Below, one piece after another: positions 31,181-45,218 of a stretch of 64,000 nt of DNA. Under the pieces are notes generated by a model, which had not been told where the DNA came from, ran no database searches, and saw only the letters and a list, made by a program, of their open reading frames with translations. Origin of the DNA: Bacteroidales bacterium (GTDB lineage Bacteria; Bacteroidota; Bacteroidia; Bacteroidales; VadinHA17); NCBI GenBank assembly GCA_016715075.1, contig JADKBK010000042.1, positions 5,710-69,709 on the forward strand, written 5' to 3'. Numbering within the stretch: the stretch's first letter is position 1; every line of letters begins with the position of its first letter. The translations under genes were made by a program, and so were the position numbers.

Positions 31181-31437
31181 TCCTTTAATGGTTCAGCATG
31201 TTATCAGAAATCAGCGTCATGGCAATCCATGAATATTTCAGGATACGAAAATATTGAAATATTTAATAAAACTCAAGGGTTTGGCATAAATAAATATGAG
31301 AATCAGTTATTAAGAGGCTGCCGGTTCAAATGAAATCCGCACTCTGATGAGACTTTTAGGTACAGATTTTTGACATACTTCTGAGATGGATATTTAAATG
31401 GTCAGCCTTATAAAAATCATTAATAAAACAGGGCAAA

Positions 31438-32745
31438 TCACTCTTTCAGGGCAGCATAACTTTTATTTCTTGAAATCATATACCTGAACGGATTGATAAT
31501 CTTCTGCAGGAGCCTTATATCTTCTGTGATGATTTCAGCTGTTCCCTGCATATTCTGTGTAAAATCAAGTTTCAATCCATAGAGTGTTGTAAGTCCATCC
31601 GGCAGATCAATCTCAATAATATATGAATCCAGTGAAGGAACAAGTGATATTGATTTGATAATACCTCTTACCATTCCGTATTCGAGATAAGGATAACCAC
31701 TGAGCTTAATATTAACCTTTTGACCAGGCTTCACTTTTCCGGAACGCTGCATTTTCAGATTTATCCTTCCCAGGTAATTACCAGTTTCAAGTGGTACTAC
31801 AGTCATTACGGGTTCATCTTTCACTACCGACTGATTTGCGTTCCAGAATCTGGTAAAGGAAACTGTTCCGGCTACCGGTGATATGAGTGTATAGGTATTT
31901 TCCCAGATTTTCAGCCTGGCATTAAGATTCATAAAAGATTCATTCAGAACAGAGACAAGTTTCTCCTTCTCTTCGATCTTTTTAATATTATAATCCTGCA
32001 GCAGCTGACGTTTTTCGGACATCTCTATTGATTTTTGGGAGTGGTCGAGCCGTACCTGCTGCAGTTCAATATCCTGGCGGATTAGTAACTGATGTGACCT
32101 TTCAAGTTCGCTTTCGGGTATTACCTTGCTAACAAAAAGCAGAGAGTCTCTCCTGAATTTTCTGTATTCAAGCTTCTGATTCTCAGAGAACAATTTCTCC
32201 TTTACTACCAGCCGGTTGATATACTCCTGTATTCCTCTGATCTCTGCAGTAAGGGAGGCAATCTTATTTCCGTAAAAATCATTGGTGATATAGTTATTCA
32301 GATCTGAAAGATTCTTAAGAAACAATCCGTAAACCTCCTGAAGTTCACCGAGCTGCGAAAAGCCCGGCAGTGATTTTGAGATCATTATTTCCGGTGTCCG
32401 GATAGTATCCACTGTTTGTTTCAGAAGCTTTATCTGATCAATAGAGGCAGTAGTTTCCATAACTGCCAGCAATTGACCGGCGGAGACATTCTCCTTCTCT
32501 TTGACATAAATATATTTTATGTTACCTGTTATCTTTGTTACAAGTGTTACAGGAGGATTAGAGGTTGTAATCTCGACAGGAGCGGGAATTGTATCAGGGT
32601 ACCTGATAAGCCAGGCAAAAAGTATGAACAGGACGAAGACAGCTACCATAACACCTGTTCCCCATCTGAGTATCCTGCGCGGAGGATTTCCCATGATCTC
32701 TTTAACAGGATCGGAATATAGTATTTCAGGTTTCCGGCTATTCAT
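31438..32745 (-). CDS. HlyD family secretion (membrane fusion) protein
   Basis: 435 aa. N-terminal TM (WGTGVMVAVFVLFILFAWLI), a long coiled-coil middle and a C-terminal beta-barrel domain. 8 nt downstream of the C39-ABC gene. Confidence 0.8.
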   Translation of the reverse strand: MNSRKPEILYSDPVKEIMGNPPRRILRWGTGVMVAVFVLFILFAWLIRYPDTIPAPVEITTSNPPVTLVTKITGNIKYIYVKEKENVSAGQLLAVMETTASIDQIKLLKQTVDTIRTPEIMISKSLPGFSQLGELQEVYGLFLKNLSDLNNYITNDFYGNKIASLTAEIRGIQEYINRLVVKEKLFSENQKLEYRKFRRDSLLFVSKVIPESELERSHQLLIRQDIELQQVRLDHSQKSIEMSEKRQLLQDYNIKKIEEKEKLVSVLNESFMNLNARLKIWENTYTLISPVAGTVSFTRFWNANQSVVKDEPVMTVVPLETGNYLGRINLKMQRSGKVKPGQKVNIKLSGYPYLEYGMVRGIIKSISLVPSLDSYIIEIDLPDGLTTLYGLKLDFTQNMQGTAEIITEDIRLLQKIINPFRYMISRNKSYAALKE

Positions 32746-32753
32746 TTGTGTTT

Positions 32754-34940
32754 TCAGTTTCCCAGTTCAAGCTGATTCTTAACAAGATTAAAATATGAGC
32801 CGTTTTTCCGTATAAGCGATTCATGGGTTCCTGTTTCAACTATTCTTCCTCCATCGAGTACAACGATTTTATCAGCATTTCTCACAGTGCTTAAACGGTG
32901 TGCCACTACAAGGACTGTTTTACCTTCAAAAAAATCTGACAGGTTTTCCACAATTACCTTCTCGTTATTGGCATCAAGAGAGTTTGTGGCTTCATCAAAG
33001 ATGATTATTTCAGGATTTTTATAGACTACGCGGGCAATGAGCAGGCGTTGTTTCTGTCCTTCACTCAGGCCATGGCCGCTGGCTCCTATTTTCGTATTAT
33101 AACTGAGAGGAAGCGACTCAATAAATCCTTTTATATTAGCAGTTTCAGCTGCTTTCAACAGTCTGTCTATGTCAATCTCTTCAGTTCCCGGGGCAATATT
33201 GAATGCTATTGTATCCGGAAACAGAAATCCATCCTGCATTACAGCTCCTACCTTTTCCCTCCATATTCTGAGACTGAGATTTGTCAGTCTTGTATCTCCT
33301 ATAAGGATCTCTCCCGTCACAGGCTTATAAAATCCAAGAAGCATTTTCAGAAGTGTCGTTTTTCCGCTACCGCTGGTACCGACTATTGCAGTTATTTTAT
33401 TCTCTTCAATAAATAAGTCTATATCCTTAAGGGCGTATGGTGATCTGGGGCCTTCATACTGATAGGACAGGTTATTTATATAGATATCTTTCTTGTCGGG
33501 CAGTTTGCGGACTTTCATCTCAGGATCGGGCTCTTCGTTATCCATATGGTGCACTTCAGCAAGGCGATCCAGACTCATTTTGGCATCCTGGGCAATGCGG
33601 AAGAAACCAATGATCTGACTTACAGGAACATTTATCTGGCCTATTATGAACTGAACTGCCAGCATCATACCAAGGGTCATAGTCCCATTAAGTACCGATG
33701 TAGCAGCCATTATTGTTATAAGGACATTGGTTATTTCATTAATAAAGGTCGCACCGGCTGACTGGTACTGAATCAGTCCCAATCCCCTTACTTTAAGACC
33801 GAAAAGCGAAGCCTGGATCTTTTCCCAATCCCATCTCATTGCGACCTCACTCTGTGTAAGTTTGATCTCCTGCATGCCATTCACAATGTTGATCAGCTTG
33901 CTGCCAGAGAGTGACATCTTCCGGAAACGCTCCTGATCCAGTCTTCCCCTTGCTTTCATAAAGAGGGAAACCCAAATAATATAGAGTATTGTCCCGGCCA
34001 GAAATAATCCAAGTATCTTAATACTGAATATTGCAAGGACAATACCGAAAACGACCATATTAAAAAATGAGAATAAGATTGAAAGACTGGCTGAGGTAAG
34101 GAAATCCTCAATCCTGTTATTATCCTCAATCCGCTGAAGTATATCTCCTGTCAGTTTGGTATCAAAAAATGCGACAGGCAATGACATAAGTTTCTGAAGA
34201 AAGCCTGAGATTATTGCCACGTTAACCCTGGAACCTATATGCAGAAGCAGCCAGCTTCGTATAAACTCGACTGACATTCTGCCAAAAACAAGTGCAAGCT
34301 GGGCAAAGAGTATAAGGTAAATAAAGCCTATATCATTATTATTCAAACCTATATCAACAATTGACTGGGTAAGGAAAGGTATTAAAAGCTGAATACAGCT
34401 TCCCAGCAGCAACCCAAGAATTAGCTGCAGGAAATATTTCCTGTACAAGTGGAAATATTTAAAGAGGAATCTGAATCCATTTGCAGCATCCTGATCACTA
34501 TCTTCGTCATACAGTGCAGGTGTAGGCTCAATAATAAGAACAAGGCCAACAGGCTTTCCATCAGCCATTGTGGATGCCCAGTTTCTTATGAATTCTTCAT
34601 GACTGTATTTTACATGTCCCACGGCCGGATCGGCAACCCATATCTTGTCTGCGCTTATTTTGTAAACAACTATAAAATGTTTTTGCCTCCAGAACACAAT
34701 ACATGGCAAAGGAACATTCTCACTGAGCATTTCAAATGGAATTTTCACTCCTATGGTATGGAACCCGAGGGAGTCGGCTGCTTCAGACAAACCAAGAAAT
34801 GATACCCCTTCCCTGGTGATATAACATCTCTTCCTGAGTGATTCCAGTGAAAAACTCTTTTTGTAATATGCTGCAATCATCTTTAGACAGGATGGACCGC
34901 AGTCCATTCCATCAGGTTGTTTCACAAAGGGGAAAGACAT
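32754..34940 (-). CDS. Peptidase C39 domain-containing ABC transporter (double-glycine peptide cleavage and export)
   Basis: 728 aa. N-terminal C39 domain with QPDGMDCGPSCLKMIAAY (catalytic Cys) and KHFIVVYK...VADPA (His/Asp region). Six-TM domain. NBD with GTSGSGKTT, LSEGQKQR and IIIFDEATNSLD. Confidence 0.9.
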   Translation of the reverse strand: MSFPFVKQPDGMDCGPSCLKMIAAYYKKSFSLESLRKRCYITREGVSFLGLSEAADSLGFHTIGVKIPFEMLSENVPLPCIVFWRQKHFIVVYKISADKIWVADPAVGHVKYSHEEFIRNWASTMADGKPVGLVLIIEPTPALYDEDSDQDAANGFRFLFKYFHLYRKYFLQLILGLLLGSCIQLLIPFLTQSIVDIGLNNNDIGFIYLILFAQLALVFGRMSVEFIRSWLLLHIGSRVNVAIISGFLQKLMSLPVAFFDTKLTGDILQRIEDNNRIEDFLTSASLSILFSFFNMVVFGIVLAIFSIKILGLFLAGTILYIIWVSLFMKARGRLDQERFRKMSLSGSKLINIVNGMQEIKLTQSEVAMRWDWEKIQASLFGLKVRGLGLIQYQSAGATFINEITNVLITIMAATSVLNGTMTLGMMLAVQFIIGQINVPVSQIIGFFRIAQDAKMSLDRLAEVHHMDNEEPDPEMKVRKLPDKKDIYINNLSYQYEGPRSPYALKDIDLFIEENKITAIVGTSGSGKTTLLKMLLGFYKPVTGEILIGDTRLTNLSLRIWREKVGAVMQDGFLFPDTIAFNIAPGTEEIDIDRLLKAAETANIKGFIESLPLSYNTKIGASGHGLSEGQKQRLLIARVVYKNPEIIIFDEATNSLDANNEKVIVENLSDFFEGKTVLVVAHRLSTVRNADKIVVLDGGRIVETGTHESLIRKNGSYFNLVKNQLELGN

Positions 34941-35062
34941 TTTATTTTCCGGAAATATATATTTTGCAGGTAAAGATATTTATATTTTTAGTTAAGAATT
35001 GTGAAGTCATGATAAAATCACAACATGGCAAACTATTAACCGGTTTTGGATCAGGGAAATAT

Positions 35063-35070
35063 TATATTTG
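35063..35070 (+). promoter_or_regulatory. Candidate -7 promoter box (TATATTTG) for the sigma-factor gene
   Basis: Matches TAnnTTTG, 22 nt upstream of the ATG at 35092. A TTTG lies at 35045-35048, but the spacing is shorter than I recall for the consensus. Confidence 0.4.
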
Positions 35071-35091
35071 CCAATTGATTCTTACTGTCGG

Positions 35092-35661
35092 ATGAGTATT
35101 TTCAGAAAAATACCGGATTCAAAAATAATTGAAGGCATACGGCTTCAGGATGATAAGATCCTGAACTGGTTATATGACAGCTATTTGCCTGCAATAAAGA
35201 ATCATGTGTTAAAGAACAGCGGTTCTATTGATGATGTTTCTGATGTATTTCAGGATTCAATAATTGTTCTCTACAGGCAGATAACTGAAGAAAATCTTAA
35301 TCTTACAACCGACCTGAAAGGTTATTTCTTCGGCATTGCACGTAATGTCTGGAGTGCCCAGTTAAGAAAAAATCAAAAAAGTACCGCACTGGATATTGAT
35401 ATTCCGGATGATGAACCCGATGAATATTCAGACCCTTTGATGGAAAGGGTGGTGAGCAGGGCGTTTGAGAAACTCAAGCCTGATCAGCAGCTGATTCTGA
35501 GTCTGTTTTCTGAGGGCTATTCTTATGAAGATATTGCAGTTAAGATGAATCTTAAGAATGAATTATACGCACGAAGGAAAAAATATCTTTGCAAGGAGGC
35601 TCTGCTTGATCTTGTAAAGGGTGATGAGGAATATCAGGAATTTCTGCGCCTCCAGAAATAA
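35092..35661 (+). CDS. Sigma-70 family (ECF-like) RNA polymerase sigma factor
   Basis: Region 2-like DDVSDVFQDSIIVLYRQI...YFFGIARNVWSAQLRK. Region 4 HTH DQQLILSLFSEGYSYEDIAVKMNLKNELYARRKKYLCKEAL. The ATG at 35092 is preferred because the TTG at 35068 lies inside the putative -7 box. Confidence 0.8.
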   Translation: MSIFRKIPDSKIIEGIRLQDDKILNWLYDSYLPAIKNHVLKNSGSIDDVSDVFQDSIIVLYRQITEENLNLTTDLKGYFFGIARNVWSAQLRKNQKSTALDIDIPDDEPDEYSDPLMERVVSRAFEKLKPDQQLILSLFSEGYSYEDIAVKMNLKNELYARRKKYLCKEALLDLVKGDEEYQEFLRLQK

Positions 35662-37469
35662 ACTAAAACCACTGCAGATATAGCTGTTACTGCCAGAGCA
35701 AGTAAAATGTATGAATGTCTTGAATAATATAATGGACGGTTGTCACCATAAACAACAAGCGACGACCAGAAATAGGGATGTGACCTAAGCTGGTCTGCAT
35801 TGTGAAGATAACTCAACCTGGCTCGCCTCAGTGCTGCGCTTTTGGTGTATCCGGCTTTAAGGTTATCATAAAATCTTTTGACAATGTCTGTGCCCGACTT
35901 ATCTTCAATTTCCCACATAGCCATAACTACCGATTCACTGCCTGAATACATAAATCCGCGTGCAAGGCTTAAGATACCCTCCCCGGAAGACAGAAAACCC
36001 GCTCCTGAGTTGCATGAACTCAGGACCACCATTTTTGCCTTCAGAGGAATACTGTAGACCTCATAGGTTTTAAGAAATCTGTCATCGGCGGTATCATTTT
36101 CTGAACTGAATATCAATGTGGAATACATTGGATCCTTATCGTTCAAAACAGTATGCATTGCAAGATGGATAATATCGTATTTCCCTGATTCATTTTTATA
36201 GACGGCTTCCTTAGCTTCCTCGTTCTCGTATAATGTCCCGTTTGTCAGATCAGAAACATATTCTGCCTCCTGCTTGGCATAAGGAAGATCAGGAAGCATC
36301 CCGTTAGTCATCTGTCGGTTCATCAGCACTGATCCAATATTGATTGGTTCAGAATAACTAGGAGCAAAAGCTATCAGCCGGTTACTTATGCTTCTCACCT
36401 TTTTCATGGATTCTGCCATAAAAGTAACAGAATAGGTATATGAAATATCAAATTCATTCATCAGATAATTAATCTGATTATACAGCATCCTGTCGTTTGC
36501 GGAGGGAGATGCTGGAATAGTTTCGAAAGGAATATAGGAAAGAATATTATCAGGAGAGATCAATAGTTTTCTGGAGATAAGGAAAGGTCTGATTGGTTCG
36601 ACGATCTTACGATACAAACGATAGCCAATCTGCTGAAAATTCTCAAATGCCACCCTTGCATTTCCGGAGGAAGAGGGCATTGCAAGCAGAGCCCTGAATT
36701 CCCTTATATCAGCATAAAAATTGCTGTCAACCGGAATTACAAGAAGTTCCCTGTTTTTTCTGTTGGCCACAAAAATATATAACAGAGTGTCCGAAGCAAC
36801 ATAATTTATATAGTTGCCATTTCTTCCTATCACACCTGATATCTCATCCAATTTTGTTACTGTTGTATTATATTTTAGTGCAAAATAATCGGGGTATTTT
36901 TTTTCAAAAACATTCACCAGCGAATCTTTCATCAAAGTAGTTGCAAGTATTTTCTCACTCCATGTTTTTATCAGGATTGTATCAGGCCTGTCCTCCTGTA
37001 CCTCTTCATCTATCTTTGCATTCATGAGATTAATTTCGCTCCTGAGTTTCTTTTCCAGATTGGCAAGATCAAAAGGAATACTAAACTGTGAAGCGTTTAA
37101 TTCCCTTGTAGCAGCAAGCAAACCTGCTACCTTACTCTTTTCGAGATACTCAAAGGCCTCTTCAAGATAATCTCTATTGCCGGAGATATTATACAGAAGA
37201 TTAAAATCCCTTATGGCATTAAGATAAGAAATGCGGTAGTTATCGCCCAGAATAAGCCTGCTGTCGTCTTCACTTATATTAATACGTAACTTTTCAAGTA
37301 CTCCTACTATCAGTTTTGCAGTAGATGATGCAGTCTTAAGAATTTCGGTATCCTGAGTTTTATTGTATATATTCCACAAAACCAGATATTTCAACTGCAC
37401 GAATTTAAGAGAAGTTTTTTCCACTTTAATTGACTCCAAAGGTGGATTCATTAAAAAGATCTTTTTCAA
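35634..37469 (-). CDS. CHAT domain (caspase-like protease) protein with a C-terminal TM anchor
   Basis: 611 aa. Catalytic dyad contexts YDIIHLAMHTVLND (His) and KMVVLSSCNSGAGFL (Cys). C-terminal TM YILLALAVTAISAVVLVYFW followed by RRRNS. Overlaps the upstream TPR ORF by 44 nt. Confidence 0.85.
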   Translation of the reverse strand: MKKIFLMNPPLESIKVEKTSLKFVQLKYLVLWNIYNKTQDTEILKTASSTAKLIVGVLEKLRINISEDDSRLILGDNYRISYLNAIRDFNLLYNISGNRDYLEEAFEYLEKSKVAGLLAATRELNASQFSIPFDLANLEKKLRSEINLMNAKIDEEVQEDRPDTILIKTWSEKILATTLMKDSLVNVFEKKYPDYFALKYNTTVTKLDEISGVIGRNGNYINYVASDTLLYIFVANRKNRELLVIPVDSNFYADIREFRALLAMPSSSGNARVAFENFQQIGYRLYRKIVEPIRPFLISRKLLISPDNILSYIPFETIPASPSANDRMLYNQINYLMNEFDISYTYSVTFMAESMKKVRSISNRLIAFAPSYSEPINIGSVLMNRQMTNGMLPDLPYAKQEAEYVSDLTNGTLYENEEAKEAVYKNESGKYDIIHLAMHTVLNDKDPMYSTLIFSSENDTADDRFLKTYEVYSIPLKAKMVVLSSCNSGAGFLSSGEGILSLARGFMYSGSESVVMAMWEIEDKSGTDIVKRFYDNLKAGYTKSAALRRARLSYLHNADQLRSHPYFWSSLVVYGDNRPLYYSRHSYILLALAVTAISAVVLVYFWRRRNS

Positions 37470-38754
37470 TCAATTCCTTTCCTCCCATTTCCCTGCCGGC
37501 GAATAAAATAGATTGTATTACGTCAAGGGCTTTGTAATTGTCACCATTATCCGCAAGAGCTGTTGCATACCCTAGATACAGAGGCACTTTAAGGAACAGA
37601 TTGGTGTGATTTTTATTGAGATAATCAAGACAGAGAGTAAAATATTCGAGTGATTTTTTGTTGGTAATATTAAATTCCCGCAGATATTCGGCGTAATTAA
37701 ACAGCGCAATAAAATATAAAGGAGATTCTTCTCCGTTATGTTCACGTGCTCTTATCACAGCCTGTCTCAGCAAATATTCCCCTCTCATTTTACTGCCATC
37801 CAATGCAAGGATAATGGCATAGTTGTTGATAAAACTATATGCCGGCTCAGAATTAGTTGACAGGGCCATATCAAGTCCTTTCTGATAAAATTCTGCCGAT
37901 TTTGTAAGTAATCCAAGGTATCGGTAAGTCATTGCCAGGTTACCCAAAACAGCGGAGTAGTTCTCATCTTTCTGAAGCCTGCTGTCACTGTAAACTGACA
38001 CAAATTTTTCCAGGTAGACTTTAGCTTTTGTATAGTCCGCGGTACGAAGGTACAATACGCCAAGGTTGCTATAAAATCCTGCCAGGTCAGCCTGGTCAAT
38101 TGTCCCGGGATTTTTTCCTGAAATATTCAGAGCAACATTTGAATATTCAATTGCTTTTTCATAATCAAGAAGACCGATGCAGGCTGTGGTTAGATTAAAA
38201 TATGTCTGGATCGACAATGGGCTCATTTCTCCATAAATCTTTTTTTCTACTTCAAGTGAGCTTTCAGAATAACGTCTCTGCCCTTCATAATCTCCAATTC
38301 CAAAATATGCTATTCCCAGATTATAAAGTGTTTTTGCATATCTCTCATCTGATTCATTATGGCTCTCCTTATAGGCAGCAGTAGATTCAAGGAATTTAAT
38401 TGCCTCACCAAATCTTTTTTCCTTCAGACAGTAGACTCCGAGCAGATAAGTTGCTGTTGATAACTGCTCACTATCGGCATTTCCTGCTGATTTTACGCTG
38501 CGGTCCAGTTTCTCTGCAACAATTTTGGTTTTAACCGGATCACCTGTGATAAGAGAGCTAAGCATTGCTTTATTCAGCGCATCCATTGATTCATGGTCTG
38601 CATCAATATACTTACTGTCATTGCTGTCAAAAAGAGTTAAAGAACAAGTCGTTACAGAGCACAGATATCCACTGTTGCCTGCCAGTGAAAATATAGGACC
38701 GGCAAACAGTACTAAAATAAATGTCATTCTTACAATAAGACAATACTTACTCAT
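37426..38754 (-). CDS. Tetratricopeptide-repeat protein with an N-terminal signal peptide; may be the N-terminal part of one TPR-CHAT protein
   Basis: Signal MSKYCLIVRMTFILVLFAGPIFSLAG. Repeated TPR units (AKTLYNLGIAYFGIGDYEGQRRY..., AGFYSNLGVLYLRTADYTKAKVY..., SAVLGNLAMTYRYLGLLTKSAEFY...). The junction with the CHAT ORF contains A5/T5 runs. Confidence 0.8.
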   Translation of the reverse strand: MSKYCLIVRMTFILVLFAGPIFSLAGNSGYLCSVTTCSLTLFDSNDSKYIDADHESMDALNKAMLSSLITGDPVKTKIVAEKLDRSVKSAGNADSEQLSTATYLLGVYCLKEKRFGEAIKFLESTAAYKESHNESDERYAKTLYNLGIAYFGIGDYEGQRRYSESSLEVEKKIYGEMSPLSIQTYFNLTTACIGLLDYEKAIEYSNVALNISGKNPGTIDQADLAGFYSNLGVLYLRTADYTKAKVYLEKFVSVYSDSRLQKDENYSAVLGNLAMTYRYLGLLTKSAEFYQKGLDMALSTNSEPAYSFINNYAIILALDGSKMRGEYLLRQAVIRAREHNGEESPLYFIALFNYAEYLREFNITNKKSLEYFTLCLDYLNKNHTNLFLKVPLYLGYATALADNGDNYKALDVIQSILFAGREMGGKELIEKDLFNESTFGVN

Positions 38755-38810
38755 GGAAATTGTGGGCTGCATTCCAAAAGACAAAACTAACGATTTTTCA
38801 AATTACAGGG

Positions 38811-38818
38811 CAAAAATA
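38811..38818 (-). promoter_or_regulatory. Candidate -7 box (TATTTTTG on the minus strand) for the TPR-CHAT operon
   Basis: Plus-strand caaaaata at 38811-38818 is the complement of a TAnnTTTG match, 57 nt upstream of the ATG at 38754. Confidence 0.3.
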
Positions 38819-38999
38819 AAAATCATTAGTTCAAAATAATTCACTTTATATCTGCATGATAATCAGGCATTGTGAAAATATTTTAAAAATATTTGATTTT
38901 TCCGTGTCACAAAACGACAGGGATCGACATGTAACAAGGTAAATGATAAATGAACGAAGAATTACCCTGAATTAGTATAAATATAAAAAAAAGAAAATT

Positions 39000-39134
39000 A
39001 TGAAAGCCCTGAATTTCGAATCGACAAAAAGCATTTTTGATGAGTTTGTACTTACAAATGAAGAGATGATAACAGTACGTGGCGGAGATAAAGATCCAAC
39101 TCCGATGCCTGCAACACCTCCCATTAAAATCTGA
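39000..39134 (+). CDS. Small precursor peptide with a double-glycine (GG) leader; 15-aa proline-rich core
   Basis: My own translation gives MKALNFESTKSIFDEFVLTNEEMITVRGG|DKDPTPMPATPPIKI* (44 aa, too short for the ORF track). The L..EEM....GG leader is typical of Bacteroidetes GG-type precursors. It has an A-rich leader (aaaaaaaagaaaatt), and a C39-ABC/HlyD exporter lies 4 kb away in the same block. Confidence 0.7.
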   Translation: MKALNFESTKSIFDEFVLTNEEMITVRGGDKDPTPMPATPPIKI

Positions 39135-39300
39135 TTTTTTAAGCAAACATCATATTTACGCCAACGCGTCAGTGGCGGATTTGTCTGACAATATTTTTAT
39201 ATATTTATTGCACTTGGCATGATTAATCTGCAAGCCTGGATTTAAGTGACTGGCAGCCGGTTAATCAAACGAAATGAACTTCATGAAGTTTTAAATCGGA

Positions 39301-39360
39301 GGGTTTTGCATCCTGACCGTCCACTCCCGGATTTTTCCGGGATGGATAAATGCAAAACCC
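39301..39360. repeat. Nested inverted repeat (60-nt stem-loop within a stem-loop)
   Basis: Outer arms gggttttgcat (39301-39311) and atgcaaaaccc (39350-39360) are perfect 11-bp complements. Inner hairpin tcccgg (39325-39330) / ccggga (39337-39342) has a 6-nt loop. Confidence 0.8.
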
Positions 39361-39389
39361 GGGGTTAAAACAGATTGAAATGCAATTGA

Positions 39390-39600
39390 GGGAATATGAA
39401 TTCTCATTTTGTGGGAATTATAATTTCTTAATAGTCGGGATGATGAATTCTCATTTTGGGGAATTATCATTTCTTGATAGACGGGATGATGAATTCTCAT
39501 TTTGGGGAATTATCATTTCTTGATAGACGGGAATATAACTTCTCATTCTGAGGAATTATAATTTCTCAATGGACGGGAATTTGAATTCTCAATAATTGTC
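39390..39600. repeat. 46-bp tandem direct repeat array (about 4.6 copies) carrying 8-9 copies of GAATTnT(C/A)ATTT
   Basis: Units are 39390-39436, 39437-39482, 39483-39528, 39529-39574 and the partial 39575-39600. Units 2 and 3 are identical. The array ends 18 nt before the ATG at 39619. Confidence 0.9.
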
Positions 39601-39618
39601 AACTATATTATAATACAT

Positions 39619-40364
39619 ATGAAAACAATCGATTTTTCACATTTCATTGAAAAGTATATTGCCGGCGAGATGGGAGAAGATGAGAAGCAATGGTTCGAAA
39701 AAGAACTCGAGGGCAATGCAAATCTCCGTGCTGAGGTTGATCTCAGAAAAAAAACAGATCTGGTACTTAAGAACCAGAATATAATCACATTAAGGAATAA
39801 GCTTTCAGTTATTGAAAACAACGTCGTGAAGCTGAAATTAGTGTTACCTCTTCATCACGACCTCTTTATTTCAGATATGCGGCAGCACTGGCGGTAATGG
39901 CAGTGATCGGAGGTACATTCCTTTACTCAGGTAAAAACCAGGGAGGTGATGTGATCGACCGGTACTATAAAATTTATGAACCACCTACAAGTCAAAGGTC
40001 AGGAATTATTGAAGCGAATGCAGATTTCACTCTTGCATTGGAATTTTACAATACTAATGACTTTGCCAATGCTGCACTGTTTTTCAGCAAAGTTGTAGAG
40101 AGCAATCCAAAAGATATGCAATCTGTTCTGCTGAACGGAGTATCAAACTTTGAGGATAAGAAATATCCGGAGGCAAAACTATCATTTTCGACTGTAATTG
40201 CTGATAACAACAACCTTTTCATAGAGACAGCCAAATGGTACCTGGCACTCTGCTACGTAAAAACGAATGAAAAAGAGAAGGCAATAAATCAGTTGCAGAT
40301 CATTACCAGGGAGGATGGCATTTACAGCAAAGATGCCGGAAAGATCTTAAGAAAACTTAAATAA
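39619..40364 (+). CDS. Anti-sigma-like single-pass membrane protein with a periplasmic TPR domain (homopolymer frameshift at 39815-39818)
   Basis: N-terminus FIEKYIAGEMGEDEKQWFEKELEGNANLRAEVDL resembles anti-sigma N-domains. Reading one frame over from 39816 gives KQRREAEISVTSSSRPLYFRYAAALAVMAVIGGTFLY (TM), which joins ORF 39897-40364 (TPR: ...ALEFYNTNDFANAALFFSKVVESNP...). Confidence 0.7.
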
Positions 40365-40384: not shown

Positions 40385-41221
40385 ATGTTTGACTTGTCAA
40401 TATCGGAGAATTGTGCTGGGGAGAATTCCAGGATCAACAAGATTGATTCCGGAACGGAGAAGGATACATTGAGGAATATTACGATAAATTGTCCGTCACT
40501 CATAACCGGGATGTCTCATGAGATGCGAACTCATATGAATGCCGTTGTTGCTTTTTCCTACCTGATGAAAGACAGTTGCTGCAGCAACTCAGACAGAGAG
40601 GAATTCAGCAATCAGATTCTGAGTTCATGTGAACAACTTATAGGGCTTTTTGACAGTTTCCTTGATTCAGCAATCATTGATTTGGGTAATTCAAAGAGTG
40701 ATTCAAGGATATGCAAACTCAATAACATGCTTGACGACCTTCTTTCCGAATTCAGGGAAATACTAAGGAGGGAAGGTCAGAAGGAACTGGAACTCATTAA
40801 TGAGGGCCAGGTTTCGGATATCTCCGAAGTTTTTCTGGACAAACACCGGGTTTTCAGGGTTATCCGGAGTTTATTCCAGAATGCTGTAAAGAACACAAAA
40901 TCTGGTTATATTAAAGTCGGTTACCATTTCAGGGATGACACTATAACCTTTTTTGTACTCGATTCCGGCCAGGGTTACTTTAAATGCAAAGAATTTCTTC
41001 ACACTGAGGATCTGAATGACTCGCTAGTCCAGCACAATGACATGTATACAGCGATCAACCTTACCCTGGCCAAGAAGCTTATTCATATGTTGGGTGGTAC
41101 AATCTGGATAGAATGCAACGGACTCACAGGGTCCGCAGTCTATTTCTCCGTTCCTGCAAAGGCGGCGGGCGCCACCGACATTAAAATTAATAAATACATT
41201 AATACCGTGATTGCTATCTGA
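40385..41221 (+). CDS. Histidine kinase core (HisKA plus HATPase_c) without TM or sensor domain
   Basis: H-box ITGMSHEMRTHMNAVVAF, N-box RSLFQNAVKNT, G1 VLDSGQG, G2-like GLTGSAVYF; 278 aa. 20 nt downstream of the anti-sigma-like gene. Confidence 0.75.
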   Translation: MFDLSISENCAGENSRINKIDSGTEKDTLRNITINCPSLITGMSHEMRTHMNAVVAFSYLMKDSCCSNSDREEFSNQILSSCEQLIGLFDSFLDSAIIDLGNSKSDSRICKLNNMLDDLLSEFREILRREGQKELELINEGQVSDISEVFLDKHRVFRVIRSLFQNAVKNTKSGYIKVGYHFRDDTITFFVLDSGQGYFKCKEFLHTEDLNDSLVQHNDMYTAINLTLAKKLIHMLGGTIWIECNGLTGSAVYFSVPAKAAGATDIKINKYINTVIAI

Positions 41222-43239: not shown

Positions 43240-43851
43240 TCAGGGTATATGCATATATTTGTGGACCTGAAGGGAAATTCGCCATTTCGGATTTGCCTTT
43301 ATATATTCCACAATCTCCGGAATAATTATACCGAACCTGCTCCATTCCGGTTGAAGATATAAGCGACATGTGTCCGTTACCATACTCCTGTATTTCTCAG
43401 CCCAGTCAAAATCACTTTCGTCCTGAATAATAACCTTCAACTCATCAGCCCTGCCGCAAATATCATCCACAGGAGGCATATTCTTTTTCGGTGAAAGACA
43501 TATCCAGTCCCACATTCCACTCAGCGGATACGCTCCGGAAGTTTCAATAAAGGTATTAATTTTATTTTTCTTCAATCCGTTACACAGATAATCAAGATTC
43601 CACATAAGGGGCTCTCCGCCTGTAACAACTACAGAATCTGTGCCGGATTTTAACACATTTCCGATAATCTCATCAGTATGGATCATCGGATGGATTTCCT
43701 GATTCCATGAGAATCTTGAATCGCACCAGCTGCAACCAACATCACATCCACCCAGTCGTACAAAATATGCAGCCCTGCCTGTATGATAACCTTCTCCCTG
43801 TAATGAAAAGAATTCTTCAACAAGCGGCAGCCTGATTCCTTCTGTTGTCAT
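43240..43851 (-). CDS. queE: 7-carboxy-7-deazaguanine synthase (radical SAM)
   Basis: EEFFSLQGEGYHTGRAAYFVRLGGCDVGCSWCDS... gives the QueE-type N-terminus and CxxxCxxC cluster; 203 aa. Confidence 0.85.
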   Translation of the reverse strand: MTTEGIRLPLVEEFFSLQGEGYHTGRAAYFVRLGGCDVGCSWCDSRFSWNQEIHPMIHTDEIIGNVLKSGTDSVVVTGGEPLMWNLDYLCNGLKKNKINTFIETSGAYPLSGMWDWICLSPKKNMPPVDDICGRADELKVIIQDESDFDWAEKYRSMVTDTCRLYLQPEWSRFGIIIPEIVEYIKANPKWRISLQVHKYMHIP

Positions 43852-43920: not shown

Positions 43921-45037
43921 TCACTTAACAGGTTGTGACAATTGAATCTTCATAAGGTTCAAAAATTCTTCGTAAAAAAAAGTATTATCGTGAATGCCTG
44001 AGAATTTTTCCGCACCGGGTCCAAAAGAAAATATGGGTACCATAACAGCTGTATGATCACCATCGGTAAATTTCACTTCAACTTTATGGTCAGTCATACT
44101 TCCGCCTGTAAGTGCGATACCTCCAGTCTCATGATCAGCAGTTACAACTATCAGTGTATTCTTATTTCCGGATGCAAAATTCGCAGCAACTCCAATAGCA
44201 TTATCAAGATCCATCATCTCTGTTACCACATATTCAATATTTTGTGCATGGCCTCCCCAGTCGATCTGTGATCCTTCAACCATCAGGAAAAAAGCCCTTG
44301 TCATTTTTACTCAGAGTCTCTATTGCTTTTCGTGTCATTTCAGCCAGTGCTCCTGTCCGTCCAGCTGTAACCGGAGGCATATGTTCTTTAGCCAGCAGGG
44401 CGGCAAGTTTTTTTGATTCAGACTTCTTCATATCCTCAAGTGTATAAACCACATCAAAACCCTGCTGTTTCAGGTTAATAGTGAGGTCAGCGCTGTCCTT
44501 TCTGACCCTGAAATGGTTCTCTCCACCACCGATAAAGACGTCGACAGTCCCATTCAGAAAATCCCTGGCAATATCTTCGTAGTTCCCTCTCCCCGCGTTA
44601 TGTGCGACAAAGGATGCCGGCGTTGCATGTGTTATTGCGCTGGTACTTACAACTCCTGTGGCATAACCATTTTTATGGGCTAATTCCAATATTGAATTCA
44701 CGACTGAACTGTCAGGCCTTACTCCTATCATTCCGTTATTTGTTTTCGTTCCGCAGGCAATTGCAGTGCCACCTGCACCGGAATCTGTTATGTAGCTGTC
44801 GGCTGAATAGGTTTTGGAAAATCCGGAGTAGGGAAATGTTTCCAGATAAAAAGGTACCTGACTGACAGTCATGCCCGCGTAGACCTGGGAGACCCCCATT
44901 CCATCACCAATAAAAAGAATAATATTTTTTAATGATTTAACTTTTCCGGTCTTTTCCGTCCTGCCATTCCATTCGAATCCGGTTAGCATTACTACAGATA
45001 TCATGAGCAATGCATGAAGAGTGTTCTTTTTAATCAT
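43921..45037 (-). CDS. Alkaline phosphatase (PhoA family), split by a homopolymer frameshift
   Basis: NIILFIGDGMGVSQ, DSGAGGTA, ...KGFF|LMVEGSQIDWGGH, VTADHETGG and GDHT. The frames meet at 44286-44293 (GG plus A6 on the plus strand). The ATG at 45037 is preferred. Confidence 0.85.
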
Positions 45038-45218
45038 ACCTGGTTTTAAAATTAAAATTACAGACTGCAAAGATATTTATTTAATCCTCCGATATAAAAG
45101 ATTTGTTGTCAGGATTTGCAAAACCAAACTTATGAAAGAATAATATCATTTTATATAATCAGTGCCATATATTGATCAATCCTGTCTGTTAATTATATTT
45201 GCCTTTAAATACAGAAAT

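Follow-up and report, generated by a model that had tools for sequence, protein, structure and literature searches.

We describe a short gene and its neighbourhood in a 64,000-nucleotide (nt) stretch of DNA from a Bacteroidales bacterium of the VadinHA17 lineage (assembly GCA_016715075.1, contig JADKBK010000042.1, positions 5,710 to 69,709 of the forward strand), a stretch that we refer to as “the window”. The gene occupies positions 39000–39134 of the + strand and consists of 44 codons and a stop, with ATG at 39000 and TGA at 39132–39134. Its translation, MKALNFESTKSIFDEFVLTNEEMITVRGGDKDPTPMPATPPIKI, has the form of a double-glycine (GG) precursor peptide, with a leader, MKALNFESTKSIFDEFVLTNEEMITVRGG (39000–39086), that ends in GG and a core, DKDPTPMPATPPIKI (39087–39131). 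Comparison of sequences strongly supports the view that the gene is translated and belongs to a conserved family, restricted to a clade of uncultured Bacteroidales/Bacteroidia, and we are highly confident that it encodes a real, exported GG peptide. [quoted passage not shown] As to whether the peptide is a signal for the adjacent TPR-CHAT/ECF module, we find the case evenly balanced.

The peptide gene, its family and its exporter

A 44-codon open reading frame (ORF) in DNA of 40% G+C says little alone, so the case for a gene rests on comparative data. Our set of loci consists of the window and 89 relatives, from three GTDB genomes (metagenome-assembled genomes, or MAGs, labelled Bacteroidia or Bacteroidales), six exact-protein look-ups and 80 JGI metagenomes. 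The initial annotation of the window had named stops or frameshifts in orthologous regions as grounds for doubting the gene; the ORF is intact in 90/90 loci examined, with a shortened core at one. At that locus (L070, positions 249–362), the only one at which the ORF ends early, the core reads EGDQIVLN* and the peptide totals 37 amino acids (aa), which could reflect a premature stop or a sequencing error. Among 57 distinct 135-nt sequences, codon position 3 varies about twice as much as positions 1 and 2. For the same sequences, the ratio of nonsynonymous to synonymous substitution (dN/dS, by the Nei–Gojobori method) is 0.25 for the leader, 0.15 for the nine fixed positions of the core and 0.96 for its six variable positions. 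The peptide gene is single-copy at each locus. Within the window, it is also the sole ORF to fit the leader pattern [LIVMF]..[EDQ][EDQ][LIVM]...GG, considering all ATG-initiated ORFs of 20–110 aa across the 64 kb.

The coordinates, codons and translation of the ORF given in the initial annotation were all reproduced. The overlapping 79-aa minus-strand ORF that it described (38907–39146) is also present, with a TTG start. Antisense frames are poorly kept, with at least 75 antisense codons open in 7–33% of 72 distinct loci, depending on the frame, and we therefore reject the minus-strand ORF as a conserved one. The suggestion that it would mask the peptide gene in automated annotation needs qualifying, since homologues have been called as “hypothetical protein” in JGI and NCBI MAG annotations and the gene is not always missed.

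A search of a 5.8-billion-protein collection returned six close relatives, with 82–93% identity. A ten-sequence profile yielded 358 clusters at 90% identity, nearly all of exactly 44 aa, and 105 representatives came from an exhaustive scan, by HMMER, of 1.84 billion sequences that represent clusters at 50% identity. The 358 clusters all lack a name or are labelled “hypothetical”, and no Pfam domain is assigned to any of them. The GG pair occupies residues 28–29 in 117 of the 120 members listed, and in 112/112 of the 44-mers. The family has one leader and one core design: nearly all cores that the exhaustive search gives behind this leader are short, rich in Pro and hydrophobic at the C-terminus, and the most distant representatives have either the same design or C-termini of the form PPV(V/I)IIEI or PPVTxPEI. 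Representatives that keep the leader and have ends of the ...PP(V/I)(V/I)IIEI- or ...PPVTxPEI-type are P0292, P0294, P0311, P0313, P0324–P0327, P0331, P0335, P0260, P0285, P0290, P0298, P0301 and P0342. P0336, P0269 and P0321 are outliers with unrelated cores, that of P0336 being Gly-rich with Cys.

The initial annotation had tentatively placed the leader in a TIGRFAMs/NCBIfam family of Bacteroidetes GG leaders, and had counted the lack of any leader-family match as grounds for refutation. Scans of the peptide against NCBIfam release 20 and Pfam gave zero matches at E ≤ 10, so that the family assignment fails and the peptide is not filed under TIGR04149-like families. The GG-leader reading itself stands on motif, conservation and context. 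On the sequence evidence, the peptide is a new GG-leader family outside current hidden Markov model (HMM) libraries.

Among 112 distinct 44-mers, the leader has the consensus MKTLNFELTKxIFDEFALSNEEMIxVRGG and is nearly invariant across all 29 residues. With G29 as position −1, leader residues L18, E22, M23, V26 and G28-G29 fall at −12, −8, −7, −4 and −2/−1; L18, E22 and M23 are each present in 112/112 members, and V26 in 111/112. The published recognition consensus of ComA consists of Leu(−12)-X3-Glu(−8)-Leu(−7) before GG, with a hydrophobic residue at −4, and the leader fits both this consensus and the contacts in the LahT150 co-crystal (PMC6363468). The double-glycine precursor proposed in the initial annotation thus matches a published C39 rule, at positions that vary little or not at all among family members. 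We infer that the C39 peptidase would cleave after G29, leading to export of an unmodified 15-mer.

The core follows a scaffold, [DE]x[DE]PxxxPxxPP[IV][KR][IVL], with nine fixed positions. Pro is invariant at +4, +11 and +12 and present at +8 in 110/112 members, while positions +2, +5 to +7, +9 and +10 are hypervariable. The earlier expectation of a varying core behind a conserved leader therefore describes six of the core positions and not the other nine. Of the 15 residues of the window core, 5 are Pro and none is Cys. Among 269 distinct cores, 167 are 15 aa long, 217 end in Ile and just 8 contain Cys, in line with the Cys-free core first described. Their net side-chain charge is −1 in 135, 0 in 65 and −2 in 48 (248/269 in total), and their composition is 29% Pro. 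Invariance in the core falls on Pro, Asp/Glu, Ile/Val and Lys/Arg, and on no Cys, Ser or Thr. The product is probably a linear, unmodified, acidic-to-neutral peptide, and its richness in Pro makes a polyproline-II-like shape likely.

An exporter is encoded about 4 kb from the peptide gene, by a pair of genes that the initial annotation overlooked. The PCAT gene (32754–34940, − strand) encodes 728 aa comprising a C39 peptidase, an ABC membrane domain and an ABC ATPase, with matches in Pfam (C39, 9e-36; ABC_tran; ABC_membrane) and NCBIfam (bacteriocin_ABC; NHLM). Directly 3′ of it, on the same strand, is the gene for an HlyD-family periplasmic adaptor (31438–32745; Pfam HlyD_3, TIGR01843). The PCAT catalytic residues Q8, C14 (in GMDCGPSCL), H88 (in KHFIVV) and D104 are present, and the best PDB matches of the C39 domain are LahT150 (6mpz, 8e-21), PCAT1 and ComA, aligned full-length with the catalytic columns matched. 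The C39 domain therefore looks active, rather than being a degenerate, C39-like one. The peptide gene is outside the transporter operon, between the TPR-CHAT and membrane-TPR genes. In several loci, a gene for a 55–59-aa protein with a single transmembrane (TM) segment (METKDIVLLIVVAAATGFSLWRKF...) lies between the DUF349 and HlyD genes (L007, 2323–2502; L008, 2258–2437; L009, 2284–2451); the window has no equivalent ORF at 31181–31437.

The initial annotation had reported no maturase gene next to the peptide gene. The same is true of a wider region, with no ATP-grasp, radical-SAM (rSAM)/SPASM, LanM, YcaO or other maturase recognised within ~10 kb, and no SPASM domain in the neighbour proteins; the flanks are housekeeping genes. 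The sole rSAM gene (43240–43851) is QueE-like and was rejected as a maturase. No small membrane-protein gene of the kind that might confer immunity adjoins the peptide gene.

The regulatory neighbours and the DNA upstream of the peptide gene

Presence of a gene was counted only where the contig reaches far enough for it to be observed. Scored in this way, the gene order (HlyD, C39-ABC, ECF sigma, TPR-CHAT, peptide, 249-aa TPR protein, kinase) is invariant wherever it can be observed. The PCAT gene is present at 30/30 loci, HlyD at 25/25, the ECF sigma factor at 34/34, the 249-aa TPR protein at 69/69 and the kinase at 51/51; TPR-CHAT is present at 59/69, with the absences apparently at contig ends. 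The block is flanked by genes of housekeeping type, for YidC, CTP synthase (PyrG), a DUF349 protein, a PorE-like OmpA protein, the QueE-like rSAM protein and an alkaline phosphatase. The fastest-evolving genes in the block are those for TPR-CHAT and the 249-aa protein, with 41–62% identity to locus L002 versus 61–85% for the flanks.

The ECF-type sigma-70 factor (35068–35661, + strand; Sigma70_r2, Sigma70_r4_2, TIGR02937) is encoded divergently from the PCAT operon and convergently with the TPR-CHAT gene. The overlap between the 3′ ends of the ECF and TPR-CHAT genes is exactly 28 nt long in the window (35634–35661), in L002 (6666–6693) and in L007 (6687–6714), an arrangement that could couple their expression via antisense or termination effects. 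TPR-CHAT, a caspase-like protease (35634–38784, − strand; Pfam CHAT, 1e-54, and TPR), is a single gene in relatives, where it encodes ~1030 aa. The window has it in two pieces, 37426–38784 for the TPR part and 35634–37469 for the CHAT part, owing to a frameshift near 37454–37498. The motifs of its His/Cys dyad, IHLAMHT and VVLSSCN[TS] (VVLSSCNS in the window), are intact in the window and in 34/34 loci. An N-terminal signal or TM segment and a C-terminal TM anchor are predicted, so we place the protein in the periplasm. It has no N-terminally fused cytoplasmic (zinc) anti-sigma domain. A search of the CHAT protein against PDB sequences gave no match, and a single-sequence AlphaFold2 (AF2) model of the CHAT region in the window was unusable, with a predicted local distance difference test (pLDDT) score of 36.5.

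On the other side of the peptide gene, a membrane TPR protein of 249 aa is encoded at 39619–40364 (+ strand; split in the window into 39619–39897 and 39897–40364, with a frameshift near 39849–39861). Its family comprises 285 clusters, all annotated merely as TPR proteins. In an AF2 model (mean pLDDT 69.6), three to four N-terminal helices are followed by a TM segment at residues 84–102, a disordered linker and a three-TPR module. The modelled layout, with a cytoplasmic helical N-domain, one TM segment and a periplasmic three-TPR module, fits an anti-sigma-like topology, and the protein is a candidate anti-sigma factor or receptor. It has no zinc motif (Cys/His). A Foldseek search with the full model gave only weak, generic three-TPR matches, none of them significant (best E, 0.025); among them are the peptide-binding modules of Hop, CHIP and PP5, which bind C-terminal peptides, and of SycD. 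The juxtamembrane linker contains a YYKxYEPPxSQRS motif at residues ~117–130 (window ~39960–40010, past the frameshift), in which R128 and S129 are invariant and Y118, Y121 and P123 are conserved in at least 90%; the motif is a candidate site for protease cleavage or docking.

The block ends with a soluble histidine kinase (40385–41221, + strand; HisKA and HATPase_c). It lacks a TM segment and any sensor domain that could be recognised, and no gene for a response regulator adjoins it in the window; in L007, a stand-alone receiver gene lies ~8 kb away. PADLOC gave no defence-system match save for generic ABC ATPase similarity, and we therefore reject the reading of the block as a defence island.

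Four genes of the window are split in two: those for TPR-CHAT (at 37454–37498), the 249-aa protein (39849–39861), the PorE-like protein, of TPR-PD40-OmpA architecture (~42600), and alkaline phosphatase (43921–45070). They are whole in relatives such as L002 and L007, and L003, from a 3.18-Mb contig, has similar splits. That four neighbouring genes are split alike suggests indel errors of long-read assembly, with real pseudogenes as the alternative.

The 100 nt 5′ of the peptide ATG are unusually conserved. They contain a bipartite element, GTGTCACAAAA-N11-GACATGTA (38904–38933, + strand), that includes an imperfect inverted repeat, TGTCA...TGACA. The spacing between its halves is fixed in 58/60 distinct upstream regions, and it has 84 matches 5′ of the peptide gene, at essentially every locus. 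Across 758 kb of loci, no second copy is convincing, and the window has none beyond its one site (versus 0.04 expected). By comparison, a housekeeping TAnnTTTG box is found 5′ of the peptide gene, on the + strand, in only 9/82 loci. The element would serve the peptide gene either as an ECF-type (alternative-sigma) promoter or as an operator for a regulator; we infer that the ECF sigma factor of the locus itself may use it. TGTCACA is, we assume, an ECF −35 element, of the kind associated with ECF41. The ECF gene, in the alignment, is preceded by a housekeeping-type promoter, TTTG...TAtaTTTG. In the divergent intergenic region between the PCAT and ECF genes (34941–35067), GTAAAGATATTTATATTTT, ATAAAAT and GTTTTGGAT...GGAAATAtTATATTTG stand out as strongly conserved; the last of these looks like a Bacteroidota housekeeping promoter (−33 TTTG/−7 TAnnTTTG) for the ECF gene.

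Closer to the peptide gene, 24–31 nt before the ATG, is a conserved block in the 5′ untranslated region (UTR), GAATTACCCTGAATTAGTATAAAT (38959–38982, + strand; also written GAATTACCCTGAAttAGTATcAAt). A 10-mer of this block, ACCCTGAATT, recurs at codons 3–6 (39006–39015), in the window as GCCCTGAATT. Among 80 distinct sequences, synonymous sites in codons 2–19 are far more constrained than codon usage predicts; for example, Thr3 is encoded by ACC in 61/67 versus a background of 26%, and Leu4 by CTG in 70/71 versus 30%. Conservation of the N-terminal part of the leader is therefore partly at the nucleotide level. An Rfam search of 38700–39700 gave only a sub-threshold, chance match to a snoRNA, and minimum-free-energy folds of the 5′ UTRs gave no consistent structure, with a hairpin around the conserved block in only ~10 loci. 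Scans for sigma-70 promoters and intrinsic terminators were uninformative for this organism. The spacer between the peptide gene and the gene for the 249-aa protein is longest in the window (484 nt versus a median of ~237) and contains window-specific tandem repeats of 23/46 nt (GGGAATTATnATTTCTnnATnGAC...) at 39390–39607; about ten other loci have their own, unrelated short tandem repeats in this spacer.

A possible signalling circuit and its rivals

The explanation that we consider the best overall, and in which we place about as much belief as doubt, is that the peptide is exported and then read by its regulatory neighbours. The C39 domain of PCAT would cleave the precursor after G29, and PCAT and HlyD would export the 15-residue core. 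In the periplasm, the core would be bound by the TPR domain of TPR-CHAT or of the 249-aa protein; with an extended shape rich in Pro and a free C-terminus that is invariably hydrophobic, it would be well suited as a ligand of a TPR. Binding would activate the CHAT protease, which would clip the 249-aa protein in its conserved linker and so free the ECF sigma factor. Positive feedback would follow, with the freed sigma factor transcribing its target, the peptide gene, from the unique element TGTCACAAA-N12-GACATGTA. The whole would be a DegS/RseA-like or DdvA-like proteolytic switch, with an exported peptide rather than a stress cue as its trigger. We regard this specific sequence of CHAT, anti-sigma and ECF steps as unlikely to be right as drawn.

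Several observations weigh against such a circuit. (i) The flanks are as syntenic as the module (DUF349 at 23/24 loci, PorE-like at 40/40), which makes all of the genomes one clade; in one syntenic clade, conserved adjacency alone is no proof that the peptide and PCAT are linked to TPR-CHAT and the ECF sigma factor. (ii) Covariation between core and putative receptor is lacking. In Mantel and partial Mantel tests (n=41 and n=20), the variable core positions compared with the periplasmic TPR domain of the 249-aa protein, controlling for its cytoplasmic domain, gave a partial r of −0.03 (p 0.72); an earlier attempt with n~10 was under-powered. The other signals, for the linker (p 0.011) and the middle region of TPR-CHAT (p 0.04), are marginal, uncorrected and would fail multiple testing. 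(iii) The N-domain of the 249-aa protein has no anti-sigma domain by Pfam, by PDB profiles or by Foldseek at E ≤ 1e-3. (iv) The bipartite element may be an operator, given its inverted-repeat symmetry, or may serve the divergent TPR-CHAT gene. (v) No outer-membrane factor is encoded in the module. (vi) The TPR-CHAT and 249-aa genes are frameshifted in the window.

The first two of these points also favour a different, though improbable, reading: that the peptide and PCAT/HlyD form a stand-alone secretion pair for a small antimicrobial or competition peptide, or for a peptide with another extracellular role, with the regulatory genes as mere frozen neighbours. Housekeeping flanks as syntenic as the module, DUF349, PorE-like and QueE-like genes among them, and a covariation test with no receptor signal would fit such a pair. 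Moreover, many bacteriocins and microcins are among the GG-leader peptides that PCATs export (PMC6363468), as are bacteroidetocins (PMC6671954). Against a stand-alone pair are the shortness of the core (15 aa), its anionic or neutral charge, the single copy per locus and the fact that no immunity-like gene was seen beside it. In addition, the peptide gene lies apart from the transporter operon, between the TPR-CHAT and membrane-TPR genes and with its own cis element, and the families of the 249-aa protein (285 clusters) and the peptide (358) are similar in size. The initial annotation had preferred a pheromone to a bacteriocin. The length of the core, its charge of −1 or 0, the single-copy gene, the lack of an evident immunity gene and the regulatory neighbours all favour that preference, which stays an interpretation.

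We give a low probability to a further reading, in which the peptide is the precursor of a peptide made by ribosomes and modified after its translation (RiPP). The core would be modified, either before its export or afterwards, by an unlinked or unrecognised enzyme, for example by TPR-CHAT acting as a clan-CD protease that processes or transpeptidates (cyclises) it, or by formation elsewhere of a Lys-Asp/Glu isopeptide. Clan-CD proteases include peptide ligases, and a lactam is conceivable in principle between the conserved acidic (D/E, +1 and +3) and basic (K/R, +14) residues. The near-invariance of the whole 29-residue leader extends beyond the last 12–15 residues that C39 needs, which fits a second recognition partner; however, the conservation of its N-terminal part is partly nucleotide-level, as described above. 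Nor do the other data favour modification: the surroundings lack a recognisable maturase, neither Cys nor Ser nor Thr is conserved in the core, ~10/112 members have I, A or L instead of K/R at +14, and models of the TIGR04149 type have no match.

Very improbable is the idea that the ORF is mainly cis-regulatory, an upstream ORF or leader transcript controlling the downstream operon of the 249-aa protein and the kinase with the peptide secondary. In its favour, synonymous sites in codons 2–19 are strongly constrained, the 5′-UTR block is repeated at codons 3–6, and the 249-aa gene follows the ORF on the same strand after 130–480 nt in which the window shows no terminator-like site. Against it, purifying selection on amino acids extends to the last core residue (dN/dS of 0.15 at fixed core positions), a perfect GG leader is accompanied by a conserved, active-looking PCAT nearby, and the spacer that leads to the next gene varies and is conserved poorly.

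Relation to known systems and significance

Among known systems, the peptide appears to work most like the streptococcal double-glycine pheromones ComC and BlpC. As in ComC/CSP-ComAB and BlpC-BlpAB, there is a short precursor with a leader of the LxxxE[LM]xxVxGG type, and cleavage and export would be by a C39-ABC protein. The putative product would likewise be linear and unmodified, with a conserved scaffold and “pherotype-like” variable positions, and its gene is among regulators. In contrast to ComC and BlpC, the setting is a Gram-negative Bacteroidales with an HlyD adaptor, and the core is acidic and rich in Pro. A histidine-kinase receptor in the membrane is lacking; the neighbouring kinase has no TM segment, and TPR proteins of the periplasm, together with a CHAT protease, are the candidate sensors instead, with an ECF sigma factor as the candidate output.

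The closest parallels to the proposed switch are in regulated proteolysis of sigma-factor inhibitors. In Myxococcus xanthus, DdvA is a transmembrane anti-sigma factor whose periplasmic TPR-CHAT part has been proposed to self-cleave a flexible juxtamembrane linker, as the site-1 step, on an unknown signal, releasing DdvS (PMC11506125). Here, too, an ECF sigma gene is beside one for a TPR-CHAT protein that is anchored in the membrane, lies in the periplasm and has a His-Cys dyad (34/34 loci). Unlike in DdvA, the anti-sigma-like topology is on a separate protein, of 249 aa and without a zinc motif; unlike in the DdvA/DdvS system, no defence island was found by PADLOC, and a GG peptide and PCAT are in the block. 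In the DegS-RseA-sigmaE pathway, DegS is activated by the free, hydrophobic C-terminus of a peptide and cleaves a single-pass anti-sigma factor, releasing an ECF sigma factor. The invariant hydrophobic C-terminus of the peptide, PP[IV][KR][IVL]-COOH, would fit such a ligand in concept. In that pathway, the protease is a serine HtrA with PDZ and the ligand a misfolded outer-membrane protein, whereas here they would be a cysteine CHAT protease with TPR and a dedicated exported peptide. In the craspase of type III-E CRISPR systems, the TPR-CHAT protein Csx29 cleaves Csx30 and so relieves inhibition of the ECF-like CASP-sigma, which the authors compare to DegS-RseA (PMC10028731). A TPR-CHAT protease acting on an inhibitor of an ECF-type sigma factor is also what we propose, but craspase is cytoplasmic, RNA-activated and CRISPR-associated, and there are no CRISPR genes here.

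Within the Bacteroidetes, the peptide resembles other GG-leader precursors (TIGR04149/TIGR04139, bacteroidetocins) in phylum, in its GG-type leader and in C39-type export. Precursors of TIGR04149/TIGR04139 are found next to SPASM/rSAM maturases (PMC8939145), and bacteroidetocins are described as class IIa-like toxins (PMC6671954). The peptide differs from TIGR04149/TIGR04139 (and from PF14406) in having no HMM match and no SPASM/rSAM maturase, and from Bacteroidetes GG-leader precursors more generally in its Cys-free core, which is 15 aa long and not cationic. The mature peptides of class II-like bacteriocins and microcins are typically tens of residues long and cationic and/or amphiphilic-hydrophobic. 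The cores of the present family, by contrast, are mostly 15 aa (167/269), are anionic or neutral (−1, 0 or −2 in 248/269) and are 29% Pro.

A literature search for a module combining CHAT, a C39 transporter and a precursor peptide found no description. Peptide-based cell–cell signalling is textbook knowledge for Firmicutes; to our knowledge, it is essentially undescribed in Bacteroidota, and our literature searches gave no comparable case. The locus could represent the first peptide-pheromone (quorum-sensing-like) circuit in Bacteroidota, in which a 15-mer is read by TPR-CHAT, the linker of the 249-aa protein is cut and the ECF sigma factor drives auto-induction, a proposition that we put forward tentatively and consider doubtful. 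If it is true, it would provide a concrete ligand for a signal-less class of periplasmic TPR-CHAT sigma regulators, and the six hypervariable core positions would be strain-specific “pherotypes”. TPR-CHAT proteases tied to ECF sigma factors, whether periplasmic or otherwise regulatory (DdvA, craspase), were discovered recently. The activating signal of DdvA being unknown, the locus is a candidate ligand–protease–sigma pathway, and the peptide family, with its 358 unnamed clusters, offers a defined 15-mer that is cheaply synthesised. Even if signalling fails, the peptide belongs to a GG-leader family that is absent from HMM libraries, encoded by a small ORF that pipelines call inconsistently.

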